Shown here in pieces: positions 1-50,173 of a stretch of DNA of 64,000 nt. The position numbers were made by a program, and so were the translations under genes. The stretch is taken from the NCBI RefSeq assembly GCF_003334815.1, contig NZ_QOWO01000018.1. The stretch is one strand, 5' to 3'. The notes under the pieces were generated by a model. It did not search any database and had not been told where the DNA came from. It worked only from the letters and a program-made list of their open reading frames with translations. This stretch comes from Escherichia coli. GTDB lineage: Bacteria; Pseudomonadota; Gammaproteobacteria; Enterobacterales; Enterobacteriaceae. Numbering within the stretch: position 1 is the stretch's first letter; the number at the start of each line of letters is the position of its first letter.

Positions 1-549
1 ATTTAAAATAAAATCGGTGTGGGCGTCGTCGAGCAAAATACGAAAACAGCTCTCTTCATCGCCCGCAAGGGTAAAGGTTAATTGATACGCCCAGTGGGTA
101 ATCACCGTGCTGCTGTCCAGCTTTAATTTCAGCGCAATACCGGAGGTTTGCAGATTAAATATCAGCGTGCAGATATCCAGCGCGAGTCGGTTCTTTAATC
201 GTGTTTCGGTTTTGGTCGGCAGGCCGTTATGCGCTTTCGCCTCTTCAAGAGACGACTCCAGACCATAAAAATTGCCCAGCAGCATTAACAGCAAGGAGCG
301 ATCAATATCAAACGCCAGATGCCCGACCTGGGAAATCATTAGTTCAGCGTTTTTATTAATAATATCCATTTCGCAGCCAATCTTTTTTAAGGTGATATTG
401 CTGCGATGCTTTTTGAGAAAGTAGCTGCCCAGATGCGAATCAATCACGTCAAAATTCCCCGTAAACAGGGTCGGCAGGTGATGGTAGGGGCGTCCGAGCC
501 GATTACCTTCTAATTTAAAGATGCCTGGCGTTTTACTGTACTTCAGCAT
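1..549 (-). CDS. lfiM: Flagellar motor switch protein FliM homolog (lateral flagellar type), N-terminal part only; gene continues past window start
   Basis: Minus-strand frame open from ATG at 549 to the window edge (183 codons, translated by hand); segment FYGLESSLEEAKAHNGLPTKTETRLKNRLAL resembles the FliM region FGGDGRFPTKVEGREFTHTEQRV; divergent from lafK as in lateral flagellar loci. Confidence 0.55.
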   Translation of the reverse strand, partial: MLKYSKTPGIFKLEGNRLGRPYHHLPTLFTGNFDVIDSHLGSYFLKKHRSNITLKKIGCEMDIINKNAELMISQVGHLAFDIDRSLLLMLLGNFYGLESSLEEAKAHNGLPTKTETRLKNRLALDICTLIFNLQTSGIALKLKLDSSTVITHWAYQLTFTLAGDEESCFRILLDDAHTDFILN

Positions 550-726: not shown

Positions 727-814
<88 letters not shown>

Positions 815-935
815 GATAACTCATTGTTTACCATAAAATAATATTTTTATTATCGTTTAATTCGAACTTGTTAATCCCGCCGGTGATACGCTTCACAATA
901 TCCTGTTTTCTGTCGCTACTGATATCGTTCACCCT

Positions 936-1922
936 ATGTCTGAACTTATTGCAACTGCCGCTTCCAGCATTAACGCTTTTACTCTGGCAAAGCGTGTCGC
1001 CGCATTTAACGTGCCGGTGCTCATTCAGGGCGAAACCGGCGCGGGCAAAGAATGCGTGGCGAAATATATTCACACCGTAGCCTTTGGTGAAAATGATAAC
1101 GCGCCCTATATCGGCGTGAACTGCGCAGCGATCCCGGAAAACATGCTGGAAGCTACATTATTTGGCTACGACAAAGGCGCATTTACCGGCGCAATTGCCA
1201 GTGTGCCAGGAAAAATGGAACTAGCGAATAACGGCACCTTATTACTCGATGAAATTGGCGATATGCCGCTGGCGCTACAGGCCAAAATATTACGCGTATT
1301 GCAGGAGCAACAGGTTGAGCGATTAGGCAGCAACCGACAAATTAAACTCAATTTTCGCCTGATTGCCTGCACCAATAAAAACCTTGAACAGGAAGTGGCT
1401 GCCGGGCGTTTTCGTGAAGATCTCTATTATCGTCTGGCGGTTATTCCTATTACCATGCCGCCACTGCGTGAACGTCTGAACGATATTATTCCGCTGGCAG
1501 AGTCATTTATAAAAAAGTACTCCACGGTGCTGGTGAAAAATATCACCCTTTCAGAATCTACCCGCCGGGCGCTGCTCAATTACCGCTGGCCCGGCAACGT
1601 GCGCCAGCTGGAGAACGCCATTCAGCGGGGAATGATTTTAAATCGCGACGGCGTGATTTACCCGGATGCCTTAGGCCTGCCGGAAACGGACGTTGCCGAC
1701 CGCAGCGAACTGCAATGGCCTGTTCAGCCCGCCGTCCACATTGCCGAAACCAGCGATTTGGGCCAGCACGGACGAAGCGCCCAGTATCAATATATCGCTG
1801 ACCTGATGCGTAAATATCAGGGCAACCGCAGCAAAATCGCCGACCTGTTAGGCATTACCCCGCGCGCACTGCGCTATCGACTGGCCTCCATGCGCAAGCA
1901 AGGTATCGAAGTTTTCTCCTGA
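936..1922 (+). CDS. lafK: Sigma-54-dependent transcriptional activator (AAA+ enhancer-binding protein), lacks N-terminal receiver domain
   Basis: Walker A GETGAGKE, GAFTGA loop (YDKGAFTGA), Walker B LLLDEIGDM, C-terminal Fis-type HTH (ADLLGITPRALRYRL); ATG at 936 with in-frame TAA at 858-860 upstream. Confidence 0.8.
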   Translation: MSELIATAASSINAFTLAKRVAAFNVPVLIQGETGAGKECVAKYIHTVAFGENDNAPYIGVNCAAIPENMLEATLFGYDKGAFTGAIASVPGKMELANNGTLLLDEIGDMPLALQAKILRVLQEQQVERLGSNRQIKLNFRLIACTNKNLEQEVAAGRFREDLYYRLAVIPITMPPLRERLNDIIPLAESFIKKYSTVLVKNITLSESTRRALLNYRWPGNVRQLENAIQRGMILNRDGVIYPDALGLPETDVADRSELQWPVQPAVHIAETSDLGQHGRSAQYQYIADLMRKYQGNRSKIADLLGITPRALRYRLASMRKQGIEVFS

Positions 1923-1936
1923 CCCGGAAGTTAAAA

Positions 1937-2278
1937 ATGAGCATTACCACAATCAACAGCACCATGCAGGCGCAAATCATGCAGGACGTGCAGCGGATGC
2001 AGGCCAACGCCCAGGCGCCGGTGCTACCCGCCATGACCTTCAGTTCCACAGACCCGGACGTGTCGTTTAACCGCATTATGTACGGCGCGCTTGGTCATGT
2101 TGATCAGTTCCAGCAGGTGGCGGAGCAGCAGCAAACGGCTGTCGACACGGGCAAAAGTGATGACCTGGCAGGTGCGATGATCGCCAGCCAGCAGGCGTCG
2201 CTCTCTTTCTCCGCGCTGGTGCAGGTGCGCAATAAAATCGCCACCGGGTTTAACGACCTGATGAGTATGTCGATCTAA
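1937..2278 (+). CDS. lfiE: Flagellar hook-basal body complex protein FliE homolog
   Basis: 113 aa, position between the sigma-54 activator and fliF; C-terminal ...RNKIATGFNDLMSMSI resembles FliE. Confidence 0.7.
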   Translation: MSITTINSTMQAQIMQDVQRMQANAQAPVLPAMTFSSTDPDVSFNRIMYGALGHVDQFQQVAEQQQTAVDTGKSDDLAGAMIASQQASLSFSALVQVRNKIATGFNDLMSMSI

Positions 2279-2282
2279 CCCT

Positions 2283-3929
2283 ATGAATGCACAAATAAAG
2301 AAGTTAACCCAGGCGTTTCCGGCGTTTCGACTGCGTCTCGTAGATAACAAACGCTGGGCGTTGATGGCGGGAGTGGGGCTTGCCGTGGCGGCGACGGCGA
2401 TTATCGTCAGCGTGCTGTGGACCGGTAATCGCGGCTACGTTTCGCTCTACGGACGCCAGGAAAATCTGCCCGTGTCGCAGATTGTCACGGTGCTGGACGG
2501 CGAAAAGCTCAGCTACCGCATCGACCCGCAGAGCGGGCAGATTCTGGTGCCGGAAGATGAACTGTCGAAAACGCGTATGACCCTTGCCGCGAAAGGCGTG
2601 CAGGCGATATTGCCCAGCGGCTACGAGCTGATGGACAAAGACGAAGTGCTCGGCAGCAGCCAGTTCGTGCAGAACGTGCGCTATAAACGCAGCCTCGAAG
2701 GGGAGCTGGCGCAGAGCATTATGTCGCTGGACGCGGTGGAGAGCGCGCGGGTGCATCTGGCGCTCAACGAAGAAAGCTCGTTTGTGGTCAGCGATGAGCC
2801 GCAAAACAGCGCCTCGGTGGTGGTGCGTCTGCACTACGGCGCGAAGCTGAATATGGACCAGGTGAACGCCATCGTGCATCTGGTTTCCGGCAGTATTCCG
2901 GGGCTGCAGGCCAGCAAAGTCAGCGTCGTCGATCAGGCGGGAAATCTGCTAACCGACGGCATTGGCGCGGGCGAGGCGGTCTCTGCCGCTACCCGTAAAC
3001 GCGATCAGATCCTCAAAGACATTCAGGACAAAACCCGCGCCAGCGTGGCGAACGTGCTGGATTCGCTGGTCGGCAGCGGGAATTACCGTGTCAGCGTGAT
3101 GCCGGATCTCGACCTCAGCACCATCGACGAAACTCAGGAACACTACGGAGACGCGCCGAAAATAAACCGCGAAGAGAGCGTGCTGGACAGCGACACCAAT
3201 CAGGTGGCGATGGGTGTGCCCGGCTCTCTCAGCAACCGTCCGCCGGTTGCGGCGAATCAGATGACCAACGGCACGGAAGAAAATCGCTCGCCGGAAGCGT
3301 TATCCAAACACAGCGAAAGCAAGCGCGATTACTCTTACGACCGCAGCGTCCAGCATATTCAGCATCCCGGCTTTGCGGTGAAACGCCTCAACGTGGCGGT
3401 GGTGCTCAATCAAAACGCCCCGGCGCTGAAAAACTGGAAGCCGGAACAGACCACGCAGCTTACCGCGTTGCTGAACAATGCCGCCGGGATCGACGCGCAA
3501 CGTGGAGATAACCTGACGCTTTCACTGCTTAACTTTGTCCCGCAGGTGGTCCCGGTCGAACCGGTGATCCCGCTGTGGAAAGATGACAGCGTGCTGGCCT
3601 GGGTGCGGCTGATTGGCTGCGGCCTGCTGGCGCTGTTGTTGCTGTTCTTTGTGGTGCGCCCGGTAATGAAACGCCTGACGGCGGTGCGTGCGCCGGTTAT
3701 CACACCAGAACCGGAAGCTGTCAGCGAACCGTGGATCGCTATGCCGGAAGAGGAGCGCAAAAACGTCGATCTGCCGTCGCTGCCCGGCGATGACAGCCTG
3801 CCTTCGCAGAGTTCCGGCCTCGAAGTGAAACTCGAGTTCCTGCAAAAACTGGCCATGAGCGACACCGATCGCGTAGCCGAAGTTCTCAGACAATGGATCA
3901 CCAGCAATGAGCGAATTGACAACAAATAA
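2283..3929 (+). CDS. lfiF: Flagellar MS-ring protein FliF homolog
   Basis: 548 aa, N-terminal TM segment, FliF-like length and synteny fliE-fliF-fliG. Confidence 0.85.
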   Translation: MNAQIKKLTQAFPAFRLRLVDNKRWALMAGVGLAVAATAIIVSVLWTGNRGYVSLYGRQENLPVSQIVTVLDGEKLSYRIDPQSGQILVPEDELSKTRMTLAAKGVQAILPSGYELMDKDEVLGSSQFVQNVRYKRSLEGELAQSIMSLDAVESARVHLALNEESSFVVSDEPQNSASVVVRLHYGAKLNMDQVNAIVHLVSGSIPGLQASKVSVVDQAGNLLTDGIGAGEAVSAATRKRDQILKDIQDKTRASVANVLDSLVGSGNYRVSVMPDLDLSTIDETQEHYGDAPKINREESVLDSDTNQVAMGVPGSLSNRPPVAANQMTNGTEENRSPEALSKHSESKRDYSYDRSVQHIQHPGFAVKRLNVAVVLNQNAPALKNWKPEQTTQLTALLNNAAGIDAQRGDNLTLSLLNFVPQVVPVEPVIPLWKDDSVLAWVRLIGCGLLALLLLFFVVRPVMKRLTAVRAPVITPEPEAVSEPWIAMPEEERKNVDLPSLPGDDSLPSQSSGLEVKLEFLQKLAMSDTDRVAEVLRQWITSNERIDNK

Positions 3930-4917
3930 GAGCAACAGCTACCTGGAACAGGCGGCGATCCTGCTGCTGTGTCTGGGCGAAGAGGCGGCGGCGACGGTGA
4001 TGCAAAAACTCAGCCGCGAAGAAGTAGTGCGCCTGAGCGAAAACATGGCGCGGCTTTCCGGCGTCAAAACCAGCATGGCGCGCAAAGTGATCAATAACTT
4101 CTTTGATGAGTTCCGCGAACAGAGCGGGATCAACGGCGCATCGCGATCCATGTTGCAGGGTATTCTCAACAAAGCCCTCGGCACCGAGATCGCCAGCAGC
4201 GTGATCAACGGCATCTACGGCGATGAGATCCGCTCGCGGATGGCGCGCCTGCAATGGGTGGAACCACGCCAGCTGGCGATGCTGATCTCCGAAGAGCATT
4301 TGCAATTACAGGCGGTGTTCCTCGCGTTTCTGACGCCGGAAATCTCGGCGGCGGTGCTCTCGTATCTCAATGAATCGGTGCAAAACGAAATTCTCTATCG
4401 GGTGGCGAAACTCAACGACGTTAACCGCGACGTGGTGGATGAACTGGACAGGCTGATCGAACGCGGCCTGTCGGTGCTCTCTGAACATGGCTCGAAGGTG
4501 AAAGGCATCAAACAGGCGGCGGATATCGTCAACCGCTTCCAGGGTAACCAGCAGGTGATCCTCGACCAGATGCGCGAGCGCGACGAAGAGGTGCTGGAGC
4601 AGCTCCAGGATGAGATGTACGACTTCTTTATCCTCAGCCGCCAGAACGAAGAGGTACGTCGACGTCTGCTCGACGAAGTGCCGATGGAAGACTGGGCGGT
4701 GGCGCTGAAAGGCACCGAAGCCCTGTTGCGGCGCTCGATTTACGCGGTAATGCCAAAACGTCAGGTGCAACAACTGGAAGCGATCACCGCGCGCCTGGGG
4801 CCGGTGCCGGTCAGCCGTATCGAACAGATCCGCCGCGAAATCATGGGCATCGCCCGTGAACTGGAAGAGGCGGGCGAAATTCAGCTACAGCTCTTTGCGG
4901 AACAGACGGCGGAGTAA
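3907..4917 (+). CDS. lfiG: Flagellar motor switch protein FliG homolog
   Basis: 336 aa; AAILLLCLGEEAAATVMQKLSREE resembles FliG N-terminus; synteny. Confidence 0.85.
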   Translation: MSELTTNKSNSYLEQAAILLLCLGEEAAATVMQKLSREEVVRLSENMARLSGVKTSMARKVINNFFDEFREQSGINGASRSMLQGILNKALGTEIASSVINGIYGDEIRSRMARLQWVEPRQLAMLISEEHLQLQAVFLAFLTPEISAAVLSYLNESVQNEILYRVAKLNDVNRDVVDELDRLIERGLSVLSEHGSKVKGIKQAADIVNRFQGNQQVILDQMRERDEEVLEQLQDEMYDFFILSRQNEEVRRRLLDEVPMEDWAVALKGTEALLRRSIYAVMPKRQVQQLEAITARLGPVPVSRIEQIRREIMGIARELEEAGEIQLQLFAEQTAE

Positions 4918-4920
4918 CCC

Positions 4921-5631
4921 ATGACCATTGAAACACTGCGCGGGCGCTATCGCCTGCACCGCTTCCCGCCGCGCCAGCGTGCGGTGACCGGAGAACCGCT
5001 CACCGCCAGCATTAGCGCCGCCGATTACCAGCGCCAGTTGATGGACGGTTTTCAGGAAGGGCTGCAAAAAGGTTTTGCTCAGGGAATGACCGAAGGTCAG
5101 GAGCAGGGCTTTAGCGAAGGTCATCAGCAAGGTTTTGCCGAGGGGCGACGCCAGGGCTACACCGAAGGCAGTCTCGCCGGGCAGCAGGAAGGGCGCAAAC
5201 AGTTTGTTGAGGCGGCGCAGCCGCTGGAAGCCATCACCGGTAAAGTGAACGACTTTCTCGCCCATATCGAACGTAAACAGCGGGAAGATTTGCTGCAACT
5301 GGTGGAAAAGGTGACGCGGCAGGTGATCCGCTGCGAACTGGCGCTGCAACCGACGCAGTTGCTGGCGCTGGTGGAAGAGGCGCTGGCGGCCTTCCCGGCG
5401 ATGCCGGAAACCCTGCAAGTGATGCTGAGTACGGAAGAGTTTAACCGCCTGCGCGACGCGGTGCCGGAAAAGGTCAGCGAATGGGGGCTGACGCCTTCGC
5501 CGGATCTGCCACCGGGCGAATGCCGGGTGATCACCGACAAATCCGAACTGGATATCGGCTGCGAGCATCGCCTTGAACAATGCATGACCGCGCTGAAAGA
5601 AACACTCACGCCGGAGTCGCAGGGTGAGTGA
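4921..5631 (+). CDS. lfiH: Flagellar export apparatus protein FliH homolog
   Basis: 236 aa; AxxxG repeat region (QEGLQKGFAQGMTEGQEQGFSEGHQQGFAEG) typical of FliH; precedes fliI. Confidence 0.75.
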   Translation: MTIETLRGRYRLHRFPPRQRAVTGEPLTASISAADYQRQLMDGFQEGLQKGFAQGMTEGQEQGFSEGHQQGFAEGRRQGYTEGSLAGQQEGRKQFVEAAQPLEAITGKVNDFLAHIERKQREDLLQLVEKVTRQVIRCELALQPTQLLALVEEALAAFPAMPETLQVMLSTEEFNRLRDAVPEKVSEWGLTPSPDLPPGECRVITDKSELDIGCEHRLEQCMTALKETLTPESQGE

Positions 5632-19936: not shown

Positions 19937-20150
<214 letters not shown>

Positions 20151-23548: not shown

Positions 23549-23588
23549 GGTAGGCCGGATAAGACGCGTTTAGCGTCGCATCCGGCAT
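23549..23588. repeat. REP element
   Basis: gtaggccggataagacgcgtttagcgtcgcatccggca. Confidence 0.8.
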
Positions 23589-23601: not shown

Positions 23602-24444
23602 TCAGCACTTCTGCACAGTATTTAACAACTTCTCTAAATTCTGATACATCGCGCTATTAATATCGCTATTCTGCCACTCATCCACATTAAAGGTTAATTG
23701 CCAGCTACCGTTGCACTGGTTGCGCAGAACAATATCACTCTCCAGTCGGTTACGAACATATTTATAATAGGTTGTCATTGTCATATTATGCGCTGACAAT
23801 AAATTATCGAGTTTGTCTTTTCCTGGTGCGAGGGTTTGTGACAGTAACGGTGCGGAATTATTTTCTTTTCCAGAACTAAGGTGAAATATTTTTATTCTTG
23901 GGCTGTTAATTGACTCTTTTACCAGTTGCGGGGCGTCAGGTGTACTTTTCAAGTGTGAATACCCCACGGTCGAGCCAATAAATATAACAGCCGCGGTCAA
24001 CGCTAACCCCATCAGTCCTTTATGTTTTTTTCTAACAGGCACAGGCAGGGTTGTCGAAGATATCTCTCCTGGCACAGTTTCCTGTACCTGGTTGGTAATA
24101 ATCAGCGCTTCCGCAGGCGATGACTCCGGCAAAGACACATACTCTTTATTGCACAGGTAACCTTTTTTCGGGATGGTTTTAATAATGTTCTGTTGTTTGC
24201 CATCATCGTCGATAGCAACGCGTAATGCATGTATCGCCGTCGGCAGGCTGTTACCGCCGACAATGCGGTTCTTCCATACTTCGGCACATAAATAAGATCG
24301 CGATAAAACCACATCGGCATTTTTTGCTAATGTTTCCAGCAAAATAAAATGGTATTCGCCGAGACGACGTGTTTCACCCGTTTCGCAATGTATTAAGGCA
24401 TTAAGCGACGGGTCCATCCGCCAGTTGTTGATAATAATACTCAT
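23602..24444 (-). CDS. lafZ: ToxR/CadC-like membrane-anchored winged-helix transcriptional regulator (LafZ-like)
   Basis: N-terminal OmpR/PhoB-type winged-helix region (LLETLAKNADVVLSRSYLCAEVWKN...IKTIPKKGY), one predicted TM helix (GLMGLALTAAVIFIGSTVGY), C-terminal periplasmic region; start at 24444 preferred, 24495 possible. Confidence 0.6.
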   Translation of the reverse strand: MSIIINNWRMDPSLNALIHCETGETRRLGEYHFILLETLAKNADVVLSRSYLCAEVWKNRIVGGNSLPTAIHALRVAIDDDGKQQNIIKTIPKKGYLCNKEYVSLPESSPAEALIITNQVQETVPGEISSTTLPVPVRKKHKGLMGLALTAAVIFIGSTVGYSHLKSTPDAPQLVKESINSPRIKIFHLSSGKENNSAPLLSQTLAPGKDKLDNLLSAHNMTMTTYYKYVRNRLESDIVLRNQCNGSWQLTFNVDEWQNSDINSAMYQNLEKLLNTVQKC

Positions 24445-24857
24445 AGTTGAGTTTACCTTAGCAAGGGATAAATGTTTCCTGATAGTGCTTTGCATAAAGC
24501 ACAGTCTTATACGTCCCTGAGAAGATGATTTTTCTGCGTGATAATTAATATTTTATGGTAATAGGATTATTCTTAATCACTATATGGCGTGGAAATGTAA
24601 CGAAATGACAGGACAGGTACAATAGCCAAATGTGTACTATTTGCAACGCAATGTAAATTTTGGCATCAGTACATTGAGAAGAAAACGCGTTAATTGATGG
24701 TAATCTTAACTATATCAAGCGTTTGATAAAGACATATTTTGATACCTGGCCATGTGGCAGATATTGCTAATAATCTTTTTATCTGAATTTAAACTCTGCT
24801 TTTTTTAGCTAAAAGTGGCATCAGATAAACCGCAGTGAAATTTTTTTAACGGCGGTT

Positions 24858-24884
24858 TTAAGTTTGCTCCCGAGGTGTCGTTTT
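24858..24884 (+). promoter_or_regulatory. Candidate sigma-28 promoter upstream of flagellin lafA
   Basis: TTAAGTTT-N11-GTCGTTTT (7/8 match at -35, weak -10) about 45 nt upstream of the lafA ATG. Confidence 0.25.
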
Positions 24885-24929
24885 TACAGGGTATCGAAAC
24901 GAAAACGATTAATCCCAAGGAGCAGTATC

Positions 24930-25844
24930 ATGTTATCTATTAACACCAATAACGCCTCAATGGCCGCCGTTAATGCAATCAGCAAAAGCAGCTCTTCTCT
25001 GTCTACATCTATGGAACGCCTGGCGACAGGTAACCGGATTAACTCTTCTGCCGATGACGCCGCAGGCAAACAAATTGCTAACCGTCTGACAGCACAGTCC
25101 AGCGGTATGGATGTTGCGCTGAGCAACATCAATGATGCCACCGCGATGCTGCAAACCGCCGACAGCATGTTCGACGAAATGTCTGACGTGCTGGGTCGTA
25201 TGAAAGACCTGTCAACTCAGGCAGCGAACGGCACCTACAGCGACGACGATCTGCAGGCGATGCAGGACGAATACGACGAACTGGGCCAGCAGATGTCTGA
25301 CATGCTGCAAAACACCACCTACGGCGGCACCAACCTGTTCGGTGTTTCCGGCACCAGCAACACCGGTACTGACGGCCTGTTCCAGAGCGCGGTAACTTTC
25401 CAGGTGGGCGCGGAATCTTCCGACACCATGACCGTGAACATCTCTAGCCAACTGAACACGCTGGTGACTGACCTTTCTGCTATCAGCAACTCCTTCAGTG
25501 CGGATCAGGCAGACACCACAGGCACCGCAGGCGTTTCTGGCGGTACTGAACTGACTGCGTCTGGCTCGGCTAACCAGATGATCACCAGCATTTCTACCGC
25601 GATGGATGATGTTTCGCAGATCCAGTCCAAGCTGGGTGCGTCTATCAACCGTCTGAACGACACGGCTAATAACCTGACCAGTATGCAGGACAACACCGAA
25701 GTTGCTATCGGTAACATCATGGATACCGACTACGCTACGGAAGCGTCCAATATGACCAAACAGCAGGTGCTGATGCAGACCGGCATCACCATGCTGAAAC
25801 AGTCCAACAGCATGTCCAGCATGGTTTCCAGCCTGCTGCAGTAA
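24930..25844 (+). CDS. lafA: Lateral flagellin
   Basis: 304 aa; flagellin N-terminus MLSINTNNASMAAVN...RINSSADDAAGKQIANRL and C-terminus ...DTDYATEASNMTKQQVLMQTGITMLKQSN...SLLQ; AAGGAG RBS. Confidence 0.9.
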   Translation: MLSINTNNASMAAVNAISKSSSSLSTSMERLATGNRINSSADDAAGKQIANRLTAQSSGMDVALSNINDATAMLQTADSMFDEMSDVLGRMKDLSTQAANGTYSDDDLQAMQDEYDELGQQMSDMLQNTTYGGTNLFGVSGTSNTGTDGLFQSAVTFQVGAESSDTMTVNISSQLNTLVTDLSAISNSFSADQADTTGTAGVSGGTELTASGSANQMITSISTAMDDVSQIQSKLGASINRLNDTANNLTSMQDNTEVAIGNIMDTDYATEASNMTKQQVLMQTGITMLKQSNSMSSMVSSLLQ

Positions 25845-25854
25845 TGGCGGACTT

Positions 25855-25953
25855 GCCGGATGCGGCGTGAACGCCTTATCCGGCCTACAAAATATTGCAA
25901 ATTCAATATATTGCAGAAACCTTGTAGGCCTGATAAGCGCAGCGCATCAGGCA
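25855..25953. repeat. REP/BIME element
   Basis: gccggatgcggcgtgaacgccttatccggcctaca ... tgtaggcctgataagcgcagcgcatcaggca. Confidence 0.8.
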
Positions 25954-26087
25954 GTGTTGCGTTTGTCATCAGTCTCAACACCGCCTGCGGGCGGTGTTGT
26001 TCTTTCTGCGGCAGGCGTATTTCCACCAGACCGGAAATGGCCTTTCCGCCCATTTTTCAATCTATTGATTATTCACATAAAAATTAT

Positions 26088-26102
26088 TGGCACGCCTTTT
26101 GC
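26088..26102 (+). promoter_or_regulatory. Sigma-54 promoter TGGCACG-cctt-TTGC upstream of lafB (fliD-like) operon
   Basis: Exact -24/-12 consensus match 33 nt upstream of ATG 26135. Confidence 0.65.
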
Positions 26103-29734: not shown

Positions 29735-30451
29735 ATGCTACAGGATGTATTCGAGTCGGAAGAATTTGCTGCCGCGCCGGTATTAACCCCGCAGCAGGAG
29801 AGCCACTACTTGCAGGCCTATTTACCGTTGGTGCGTAAAGTGGTGCGGCAACTTGCCCCGCAGTGTAATTGCATTATTGATCGTCAGGATATGGAACAAA
29901 CGGCGTTAATGGGGCTGCTTAATGCCATCCGTCGCTACGGGCTGCCGGACGAAGGTTTTGCGGGCTATGCCGTGCACCGTATTCGCGGCGCGATCCTGGA
30001 TGAGCTGCGCGCTCTCGACTGGCGACCGCGCCAGCTGCGACAGAAATATCATCAGATGAAAGATCTGATTCGCGAAACGCGCAAAAAACTGGGGCACGAA
30101 CCGGAGTGGTCAGAACTGGCCGTGGAAGGGATCTCGCATGAAGATTATCTCGAATATCAGCAACTGGAAGGGGCGGAAACGCTCGCCAGCCTGGACGAAC
30201 TGCTGAACGGCGAAGGGCCTGGCATTCTGCTTGCTGGCAGGGAGCTGGAAGATCAGTTTGTCACCCAGCAAATGCTGCAACAGGCGCTTTCACAATTAAG
30301 CGAAAAAGAGCAACTGATCCTCTCCATGTATTACCAGCATGAGATGAATCTCAAAGAGATTGCGCTGGTATTAGGGCTAACCGAGGCCCGAATTTGTCAA
30401 CTGAATAAACAGATCGCGCAGAAAATTCGTGATTTTGTCTATCCGAATTAA
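29735..30451 (+). CDS. lafS: Flagellar sigma factor sigma-28 (FliA family)
   Basis: 238 aa; sigma-70 family regions 2 and 4 (YLPLVRKVVRQ..., LSEKEQLILSMYYQHEMNLKEIALVLGLTEARICQL). Confidence 0.85.
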   Translation: MLQDVFESEEFAAAPVLTPQQESHYLQAYLPLVRKVVRQLAPQCNCIIDRQDMEQTALMGLLNAIRRYGLPDEGFAGYAVHRIRGAILDELRALDWRPRQLRQKYHQMKDLIRETRKKLGHEPEWSELAVEGISHEDYLEYQQLEGAETLASLDELLNGEGPGILLAGRELEDQFVTQQMLQQALSQLSEKEQLILSMYYQHEMNLKEIALVLGLTEARICQLNKQIAQKIRDFVYPN

Positions 30452-43520: not shown

Positions 43521-43596
43521 GCCGATATAGCTCAGTTGGTAGAGCAGCGCATTCGTAATGCGAAGGTCGTAGGTTCGACTCCTATTATCGGCACCA
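43521..43596 (+). tRNA. thrW: tRNA-Thr (anticodon CGT)
   Basis: 76-nt cloverleaf GCCGATATAGCTCAGTTGGTAGAGCAGCGCATTCGTAATGCG...GGTTCGACTCCTATTATCGGCACCA with encoded CCA; anticodon loop ttCGTaa. Confidence 0.9.
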
Positions 43597-49947: not shown

Positions 49948-49964
49948 TGCATTGAATGATAAAA

Positions 49965-49990
49965 ATGGCGCAAATACAGCGCCATTTTTA
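49965..49990 (+). terminator. Rho-independent terminator of yagU
   Basis: atggcgc-aaataca-gcgccat followed by TTTTTA. Confidence 0.6.
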
Positions 49991-50137
49991 TAGGTTAAAA
50001 ACATTGCTTTTTATATTCTGATGCAGATAGTCAGTGAGTATATCGCGCTACTTCAGGATGATGTAGATCCGAAGAACGCTACAGAAGAGAGGCATTGTTG
50101 CTGGCAAATAGAAGAAGTATCGGGTTTTGTTACCCCT

Positions 50138-50173
50138 GAAAAACGAAGCCCCGCTATTATCGCTGGCGGGGCA
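50138..50173 (-). terminator. Probable rho-independent terminator of ykgJ
   Basis: Minus strand GCCCCGC-loop-GCGGGGC followed by ttcgttttt, 22 nt after ykgJ stop. Confidence 0.45.

Follow-up and report, generated by a model that had tools for sequence, protein, structure and literature searches.

How is a sigma-54 activator controlled when it carries no receiver domain, and is its short form proper to the protein or the outcome of damage to a longer one? The question is raised by lafK, a gene for a sigma-54 enhancer-binding protein that lies at the head of a set of flagellar genes in the stretch of Escherichia coli DNA analysed here (64,000 nucleotides, referred to as the window). Many E. coli chromosomes match positions 1-2300 of the window at 100% identity. 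In the identical locus RefSeq names the lafK product a "sigma-54 interaction domain-containing protein" (WP_001292204.1). There, lafK is flanked on one side by a divergent gene of the FliM/FliN family, past which follow genes for FliN, FliP, FliQ, FliR, FlhB and FlhA, and on the other side by genes for FliE, FliF, FliG, FliH, FliI and FliJ. Cluster 1 of the Flag-2 (lateral-type) locus has been described as lfhAB-lfiRQPNM-lafK-lfiEFGHIJ (De Maayer et al. 2020, PMC6993521), and the region in the window is cluster 1 of Flag-2, the second flagellar system of E. coli. The gene order is that of LafK, which stands first in lafK-fliE-fliF-fliG and divergent from a fliM-type gene within a lateral cluster. 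The Flag-2 region is present in about 1,270-1,285 of 5,426 complete E. coli genomes. The features discussed below are collected in Table 1.

Table 1. Features of the Flag-2 locus and their positions in the window
Feature	Position	Strand	Description
lfiM (5' part)	1..549	-	FliM-like switch protein gene; divergent from lafK; cut by the window edge
BIME	729..811	.	two inverted REP palindromes, 733-763 and 778-807; both strands match Rfam naRNA4
Candidate sigma-70 promoter of lafK	824..853	+	TTGTTT-18 nt-TATTAT; consensus match 3/6 and 5/6
In-frame TAA	858..860	+	upstream closure of the lafK reading frame
lafK	936..1922	+	328-aa sigma-54 enhancer-binding protein; ATG start; no N-terminal regulatory domain
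lfiE	1937..2278	+	FliE; the structural genes begin here, 14 nt past lafK
lfiF	2283-3929	+	same operon as lfiE
lfiG	3907-4917	+	same operon as lfiE
Sigma-54 promoter of lfgB	13161..13175	+	consensus TGGCACGGCGATTGC; predicted LafK target
REP-type element	20015-20092		naRNA4, 83.9 bits (Rfam)
REP-type element	23550-23586
lafZ	23602..24495	-	ToxR/CadC-like regulator; Trans_reg_C winged helix at residues 42-114
Second BIME	25856-25950		between lafA and the lafB sigma-54 promoter; Rfam ES036/CssrF match at 25889-25931
Terminator-like hairpin	25976-26008		between lafA and the lafB sigma-54 promoter
Sigma-54 promoter of lafB (FliD-like)	26088..26102	+	consensus TGGCACGCCTTTTGC; 33 nt upstream of lafB; predicted LafK target
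lafS	29735..30451	+	gene for a sigma-28 factor (FliA type), downstream of the lafB promoter

The LafK protein has a compact layout. Pfam places Sigma54_activat (PF00158) at residues 6-172 (E 8.6e-64), AAA_lid_14 at residues 178-246 and a Fis-type HTH_8 domain at residues 284-317 (E 2.3e-08), so that the molecule comprises an AAA+ core (6-246), a variable linker (247-283) and the C-terminal HTH. The Walker A motif GETGAGKE, the GAFTGA motif (81-86), the Walker B residues DE (105-106) and the arginine motifs are all present. An earlier note on this DNA had described a complete AAA+ sigma-54 module with a C-terminal HTH and the ATPase domain at the very start, and the Pfam boundary at residue 6 bears this out. 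No match to a receiver (Response_reg, PF00072) or to the FleQ N-terminal domain (PF06490) is found by Pfam in LafK, and nothing precedes residue 6. NCBIfam models for NifA, FlbD, NtrC, PspF and proteins like them match LafK solely over their central and C-terminal parts and, in every case, below the curated cut-offs; LafK therefore belongs to no curated equivalog.

The reading frame leaves no room for a longer protein. The in-frame TAA upstream of lafK is followed by no ATG, GTG or TTG in the lafK frame between positions 861 and 935, so that a longer N-terminus is impossible in that frame; an alternative start is ruled out on the same grounds, just as the earlier note had read the stop codon. 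Nor is there a trace of a lost domain, as a tblastn search with two receiver domains against positions 1-1000 of the window gave noise only (best E 0.17 over 21 aa). The whole lfiM-lafK spacer, at 386 bp, could not accommodate a 120-residue domain plus two promoters. We conclude from the Pfam and tblastn results that LafK is without a receiver, as had been proposed. Phospho-control had also been thought improbable, and in the form of control via a receiver in cis it is excluded, since the receiver and a longer N-terminus are both absent.

LafK was also compared with known activators. The closest solved structure is the AAA+ domain of Vibrio cholerae FlrC (4qhs, E 3.7e-75), with FleQ/FlrA at ~1e-62 to 1e-64 and PspF at ~1e-53. 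FlrC and FleR, the NtrC-type activators of polar flagella, share with LafK a position directly upstream of fliE-fliF-fliG, but FlrC has a phospho-accepting N-terminal receiver and a cognate kinase, FlrB, whereas LafK has no receiver; with neither a PF00072 match nor an upstream remnant, LafK does not belong to the NtrC/FlrC type. FleQ and FlrA head a sigma-54 flagellar hierarchy, as is proposed for LafK, and the AAA+ plus HTH_8 core is common to both. LafK differs from them in that it lacks the FleQ N-terminal domain and, by inspection, does not conserve the c-di-GMP motifs LFRS and KExxxRN. The same AAA+ plus HTH architecture is seen in PspF and HrpR/HrpS ('type Ic'), proteins of ~300-330 aa in which only a few residues precede the AAA+ core; residues 4-235 of LafK align with residues 8-239 of PspF.

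The short form is shared by LafK proteins well beyond E. coli. Among the best 120 database relatives of LafK, orthologues are found in eleven genera (Citrobacter, Leminorella, Enterobacter, Pseudescherichia, Atlantibacter, Siccibacter, Budvicia, Pantoea, Regiella, Hafnia and Pragia), and Scandinavium and others are likewise represented among these 120. The full-length orthologues in this set are almost all 324-348 aa long, one upstream-start call reaching 364 aa, and none of those between 324 and 364 aa carries a precomputed PF00072 match. Each of twelve aligned orthologues begins 0-13 residues before the shared AAA+ start, and the catalytic motifs listed above are invariant in all twelve. Citrobacter and Hafnia also have the synteny of the window, with lfiM divergent from lafK and then lfiE, lfiF and lfiG. 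Between E. coli alleles the dN/dS ratio of lafK is 0.026 and 0.099, and in the comparison with Citrobacter it is 0.058; strong purifying selection thus acts on the gene, and these data argue for its maintenance.

The absence of a receiver had been singled out as noteworthy, and an alignment with full-length LafK homologues had been suggested as a check. Francke et al. (2011) had already named PspF, HrpR/S and LafK as enhancer-binding proteins "lacking the signal recognition domain" (PMC3162934), and every enterobacterial orthologue examined has the same receiver-less form. Among these orthologues there is no receiver-bearing LafK to align; the twelve that were aligned share the AAA+ start. The architecture of LafK is thus correctly described but ordinary, already known and family-wide.

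Four database proteins of 462-521 aa (P0053, P0068, P0110 and P0080) appear to depart from this pattern, each having a C-terminus near-identical to that of LafK behind a receiver or some other N-terminal domain. The N-terminus of P0053 is an unrelated response-regulator receiver; the N-terminal halves of P0068 and P0110 we take, reading them by eye, to be E. coli NtrC, and that of P0080 is, by the same reading, presumably E. coli TyrR. In all four the switch to LafK sequence falls at the universally conserved AAA+ motifs FREDLYYRL/PPLRER, and all four come from metagenome contigs of 2-5 kb. Given junctions at conserved motifs and contigs this short, we reject them as true receiver-LafK proteins and regard them as assembly chimeras. 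In two other entries, P0009 and P0011, a frameshift or deletion has fused lafK with lfiE and lfiG. Chimeric gene calls from metagenomes are a trap for surveys of domain architecture.

The predicted targets of LafK lie in the same locus. Exact matches to TGGCAC-N5-TTGC occur at only two sites in the 64 kb, at 13161 and 26088, where chance would give 0.34. These are the two promoters to which the earlier note had pointed; they are the sole exact sigma-54 consensus sites and stand upstream of lfgB and lafB, where sigma-54 sites have already been published for strain PCN033 (PMC4578781). The longest lfgB open reading frame starts at 13183, a position that would precede the predicted transcript start because it is just 8 nt past the sigma-54 -12 element. 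An in-frame ATG at 13213 lies 38 nt after the 13161 site, and position 1 of the FlgB model aligns with residue 1 counted from there, which makes 13213 the likelier start. The location of lafS downstream of the lafB promoter makes the usual three-tier cascade plausible. No match to the sigma-28 consensus TAAAGTTT-N11-GCCGATAA with three or fewer mismatches is found anywhere in the window, and the late promoter of lafA was therefore not located. In the longest lafA open reading frame, which opens with a TTG at 24864 (window 24864-24930), the match to the lateral flagellin model (NF033376, LafA) begins at residue 23, and the true start of lafA is probably near 24930.

Taken with the gene order and the orthologues, these features make it very probable, in our view, that the gene encodes the intact E. 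coli Flag-2 orthologue of LafK, a minimal activator of AAA+ and Fis-type HTH domains that is active by default and whose output is set mainly by its amount. By analogy with PspF and HrpR/S, we infer that LafK activity is constitutive: with no inhibitory or sensory domain in cis, an active hexamer would assemble by default. It would bind upstream of the lfgB and lafB promoters, where ATP hydrolysis and the GAFTGA loop would open the sigma-54 closed complexes, and lafS, carried in one of the operons activated in this way, would then drive the late genes (lafA). The output of the cascade would depend mainly on how much LafK is made, and the suggestion that LafK is regulated at the level of its expression agrees with this as the most plausible mode of control. 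For lafK itself, a sigma-70-type promoter in the divergent lfiM-lafK region would initiate transcription. This type is proposed because no sigma-54 promoter was found there, before either lafK or lfiM, in a search that allowed up to three mismatches and kept the GG and GC dinucleotides.

Signals would probably enter through other regulators, either the ToxR-like LafZ or global factors. A hydrophobic stretch near residues 160-180 of LafZ is read by eye as one membrane span, and the C-terminal ~115 residues have no Pfam match. LafZ could be a sensory input to the locus, with a putative link to lafK.

The lateral flagellar systems of Vibrio and Aeromonas offer the nearest functional comparison. 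There, LafK is the master activator of the lateral flagellar class II genes (PMC4481668, PMC5013049); the requirement for LafK is established in these two genera. In V. parahaemolyticus and A. hydrophila lafK is likewise the first gene of a lafK-fliEFGHIJ-type operon in the lateral cluster, and by its published description the protein also activates with sigma-54, has a C-terminal HTH and lacks a signal-recognition domain (PMC3162934). The Vibrio and Aeromonas targets include flgB-type and late operons (PMC5013049), those in E. coli being predicted. Transcription of lafK in A. hydrophila is sigma-70 dependent (PMC4481668). E. coli lafK, which has no sigma-54 promoter, resembles the Aeromonas gene in this respect, unlike that of V. 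parahaemolyticus, for which RpoN-dependent expression has been reported.

The strongest alternative to control by amount is that LafK is regulated post-translationally, either by a trans-acting anti-activator like PspA, HrpV or, in the case of FleQ, FleN, or by a small ligand, for example c-di-GMP bound to the AAA+ domain as in FleQ/FlrA, so that its level alone would not be decisive. The best-studied receiver-less activators are indeed regulated in trans: PspF and HrpR/S are held in check by dedicated partners encoded nearby, PspA and HrpV respectively. No pspA-, hrpV- or fleN-like gene was noticed in the Flag-2 locus, although this look was not systematic. LafV, a degenerate EAL protein of V. 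parahaemolyticus, represses genes of the surface regulon in a LafK-dependent manner (PMC9303241). As to a ligand, c-di-GMP binds FleQ on its AAA+ domain (PMC7288161). In E. coli LafK, however, the FleQ motif KExxxRN that follows Walker A reads KECVAKY by inspection, with K43 invariant in 12 of 12 orthologues, and the LFRS switch position would, also by inspection, fall before Met1. FleQ-type binding of c-di-GMP by LafK appears unlikely on these residues, and post-translational control as a whole we regard as improbable. We retain the reading in which LafK is active by default and its amount sets the output, and turn to the region from which lafK would be expressed.

The lfiM-lafK spacer is shorter in E. 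coli than the 594 bp of Citrobacter and the 641 bp of Hafnia. The candidate sigma-70 promoter lies within an AT-rich block that is conserved among E. coli alleles and with Citrobacter. The leader from this block to the start codon measures ~65 nt in E. coli (positions 871-935), ~145 nt less than its Citrobacter counterpart, in a comparison (against L002:2810-3000 and L004) whose alignment is not good enough to pin the difference to a single deletion. No obvious Shine-Dalgarno sequence precedes lafK in E. coli, Citrobacter or Hafnia, and the only known RNA element that Rfam reports for the lafK leader, riboswitches included, is the REP-derived naRNA4 match on the BIME that lies upstream.

This BIME had been credited with a possible influence on lafK. 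The element itself is real, being an inverted pair of imperfect REP palindromes of the GCC(G/T)GATGCG...CTTATC(C/A)GGCCTAC type (inverted repeats I1-I3), and it matches the REP-derived Rfam family naRNA4 over positions 732-808 with 85.9 bits, which exceeds the gathering score of 59.5. That it tunes the expression of lafK (and lfiM), for instance through gyrase or HU binding, a cruciform or a naRNA4-like RNA, we nevertheless consider highly unlikely. Its location would suit such a role, as it lies ~10-95 bp upstream of the candidate -35 element and inside the divergent promoter region, and the BIME version of this slot is the commonest in E. coli, most Flag-2 carriers aligning over the full 1,001 bp. 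However, the slot is polymorphic. In strain 118UI (L008:1900-2050) it is occupied by a rearranged REP pair; unrelated non-REP sequence fills it in another locus (L007:1830-1960) and in at least 58 genomes, PCN033 and SMS-3-5 among them. No BIME is present in the Citrobacter or the Hafnia spacer. Elsewhere in the locus, REP-type elements occupy at least three more intergenic sites (Table 1).

The flanks of the slot are conserved across the E. coli alleles with the BIME, the rearranged REP pair and the non-REP sequence. The last of these is ~120 bp long, G/C-rich and palindromic, and megablast finds it as a single copy per genome in 58 genomes. It could be matched to no known repeat family, Rfam giving one below-threshold chance match for the L007 version. 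A 2.3-kb query containing the BIME, by comparison, matched all 5,426 genomes, at a median of 25 places in each. The distribution of the BIME looks like neutral, ordinary REP colonisation of intergenic DNA, and the claim of a regulatory influence on lafK, resting on an element that is polymorphic in E. coli and absent in relatives, is unsupported.

The idea that lafK is what is left of a longer FlrC/FleQ-like activator with a receiver, a truncated gene or pseudogene clipped in E. coli by a repeat insertion for example, can be dismissed almost completely. The closeness of the FlrC structure, the shortened E. coli leader and the few long proteins that pair a receiver with a LafK C-terminus might suggest it. 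It is refuted, however, by the alignment, in which orthologues from other genera share both the shortness and the start residue of the E. coli protein, and it is opposed by the lack of an upstream receiver remnant, by the strong purifying selection on lafK and by the nature of the long proteins as assembly chimeras. LafK as an intact activator of normal length for its family is the reading that stands.

Receiver-less activators also occur among more distant relatives. A search of a representative library together with a cluster look-up returned several short distant homologues of 312-368 aa, and receiver-less homologues of 336-350 aa are encoded directly upstream of fliE in other Gammaproteobacteria. 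In a Pseudomonadales MAG (GCA_019090385.1, L009:1772-5400) the corresponding region contains, in this order, genes for a FleQ-like activator, a histidine kinase (251 aa) and a receiver-less sigma-54 activator (350 aa), followed by fliE; the kinase beside a receiver-less activator points either to a mis-called start or to an intermediate in receiver loss. Two tandem activators stand before fliE in two further loci (L010 and L011). It is possible, though we put it forward tentatively and with more doubt than belief, that LafK-type regulators descend from FlrC/FleR by loss of the receiver and the kinase, with possible intermediates surviving as in the Pseudomonadales MAG, and that the control region of E. 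coli lafK has been remodelled further, as its shorter leader and polymorphic repeat slot may reflect. Such remodelling could contribute to the apparent laboratory silence of Flag-2 and to differences in its expression from strain to strain.

In the ST131 strain EC958, LafA was undetected and Flag-2 motility was not seen under the conditions tested (PMC4637896), and the literature examined yielded no condition under which E. coli expresses Flag-2. Since LafK has no sensory domain, artificial expression of lafK should suffice to test Flag-2 assembly. Roughly one quarter of E. coli strains carry Flag-2, and their ability to build these flagella should be testable by this means. The main value of the analysis lies in the correct annotation of LafK as the entry point of the Flag-2 regulatory cascade. 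The loci are not all equally intact. In E. coli 1303 (L001:10921-11620) the Flag-2 fliH gene (lfiH) is marked as frameshifted by RefSeq, and the lafK region is 100% identical to that of the window. The counterpart of lfiH in the window, the reading frame at 4921-5631, is open and encodes 236 aa, so that loci which are otherwise near-identical differ in whether Flag-2 is intact. Away from the Flag-2 locus, a tRNA gene at 43521-43593 and a match to the IS009 RNA family at 49953-50152 (202 bits) are identified by Rfam.
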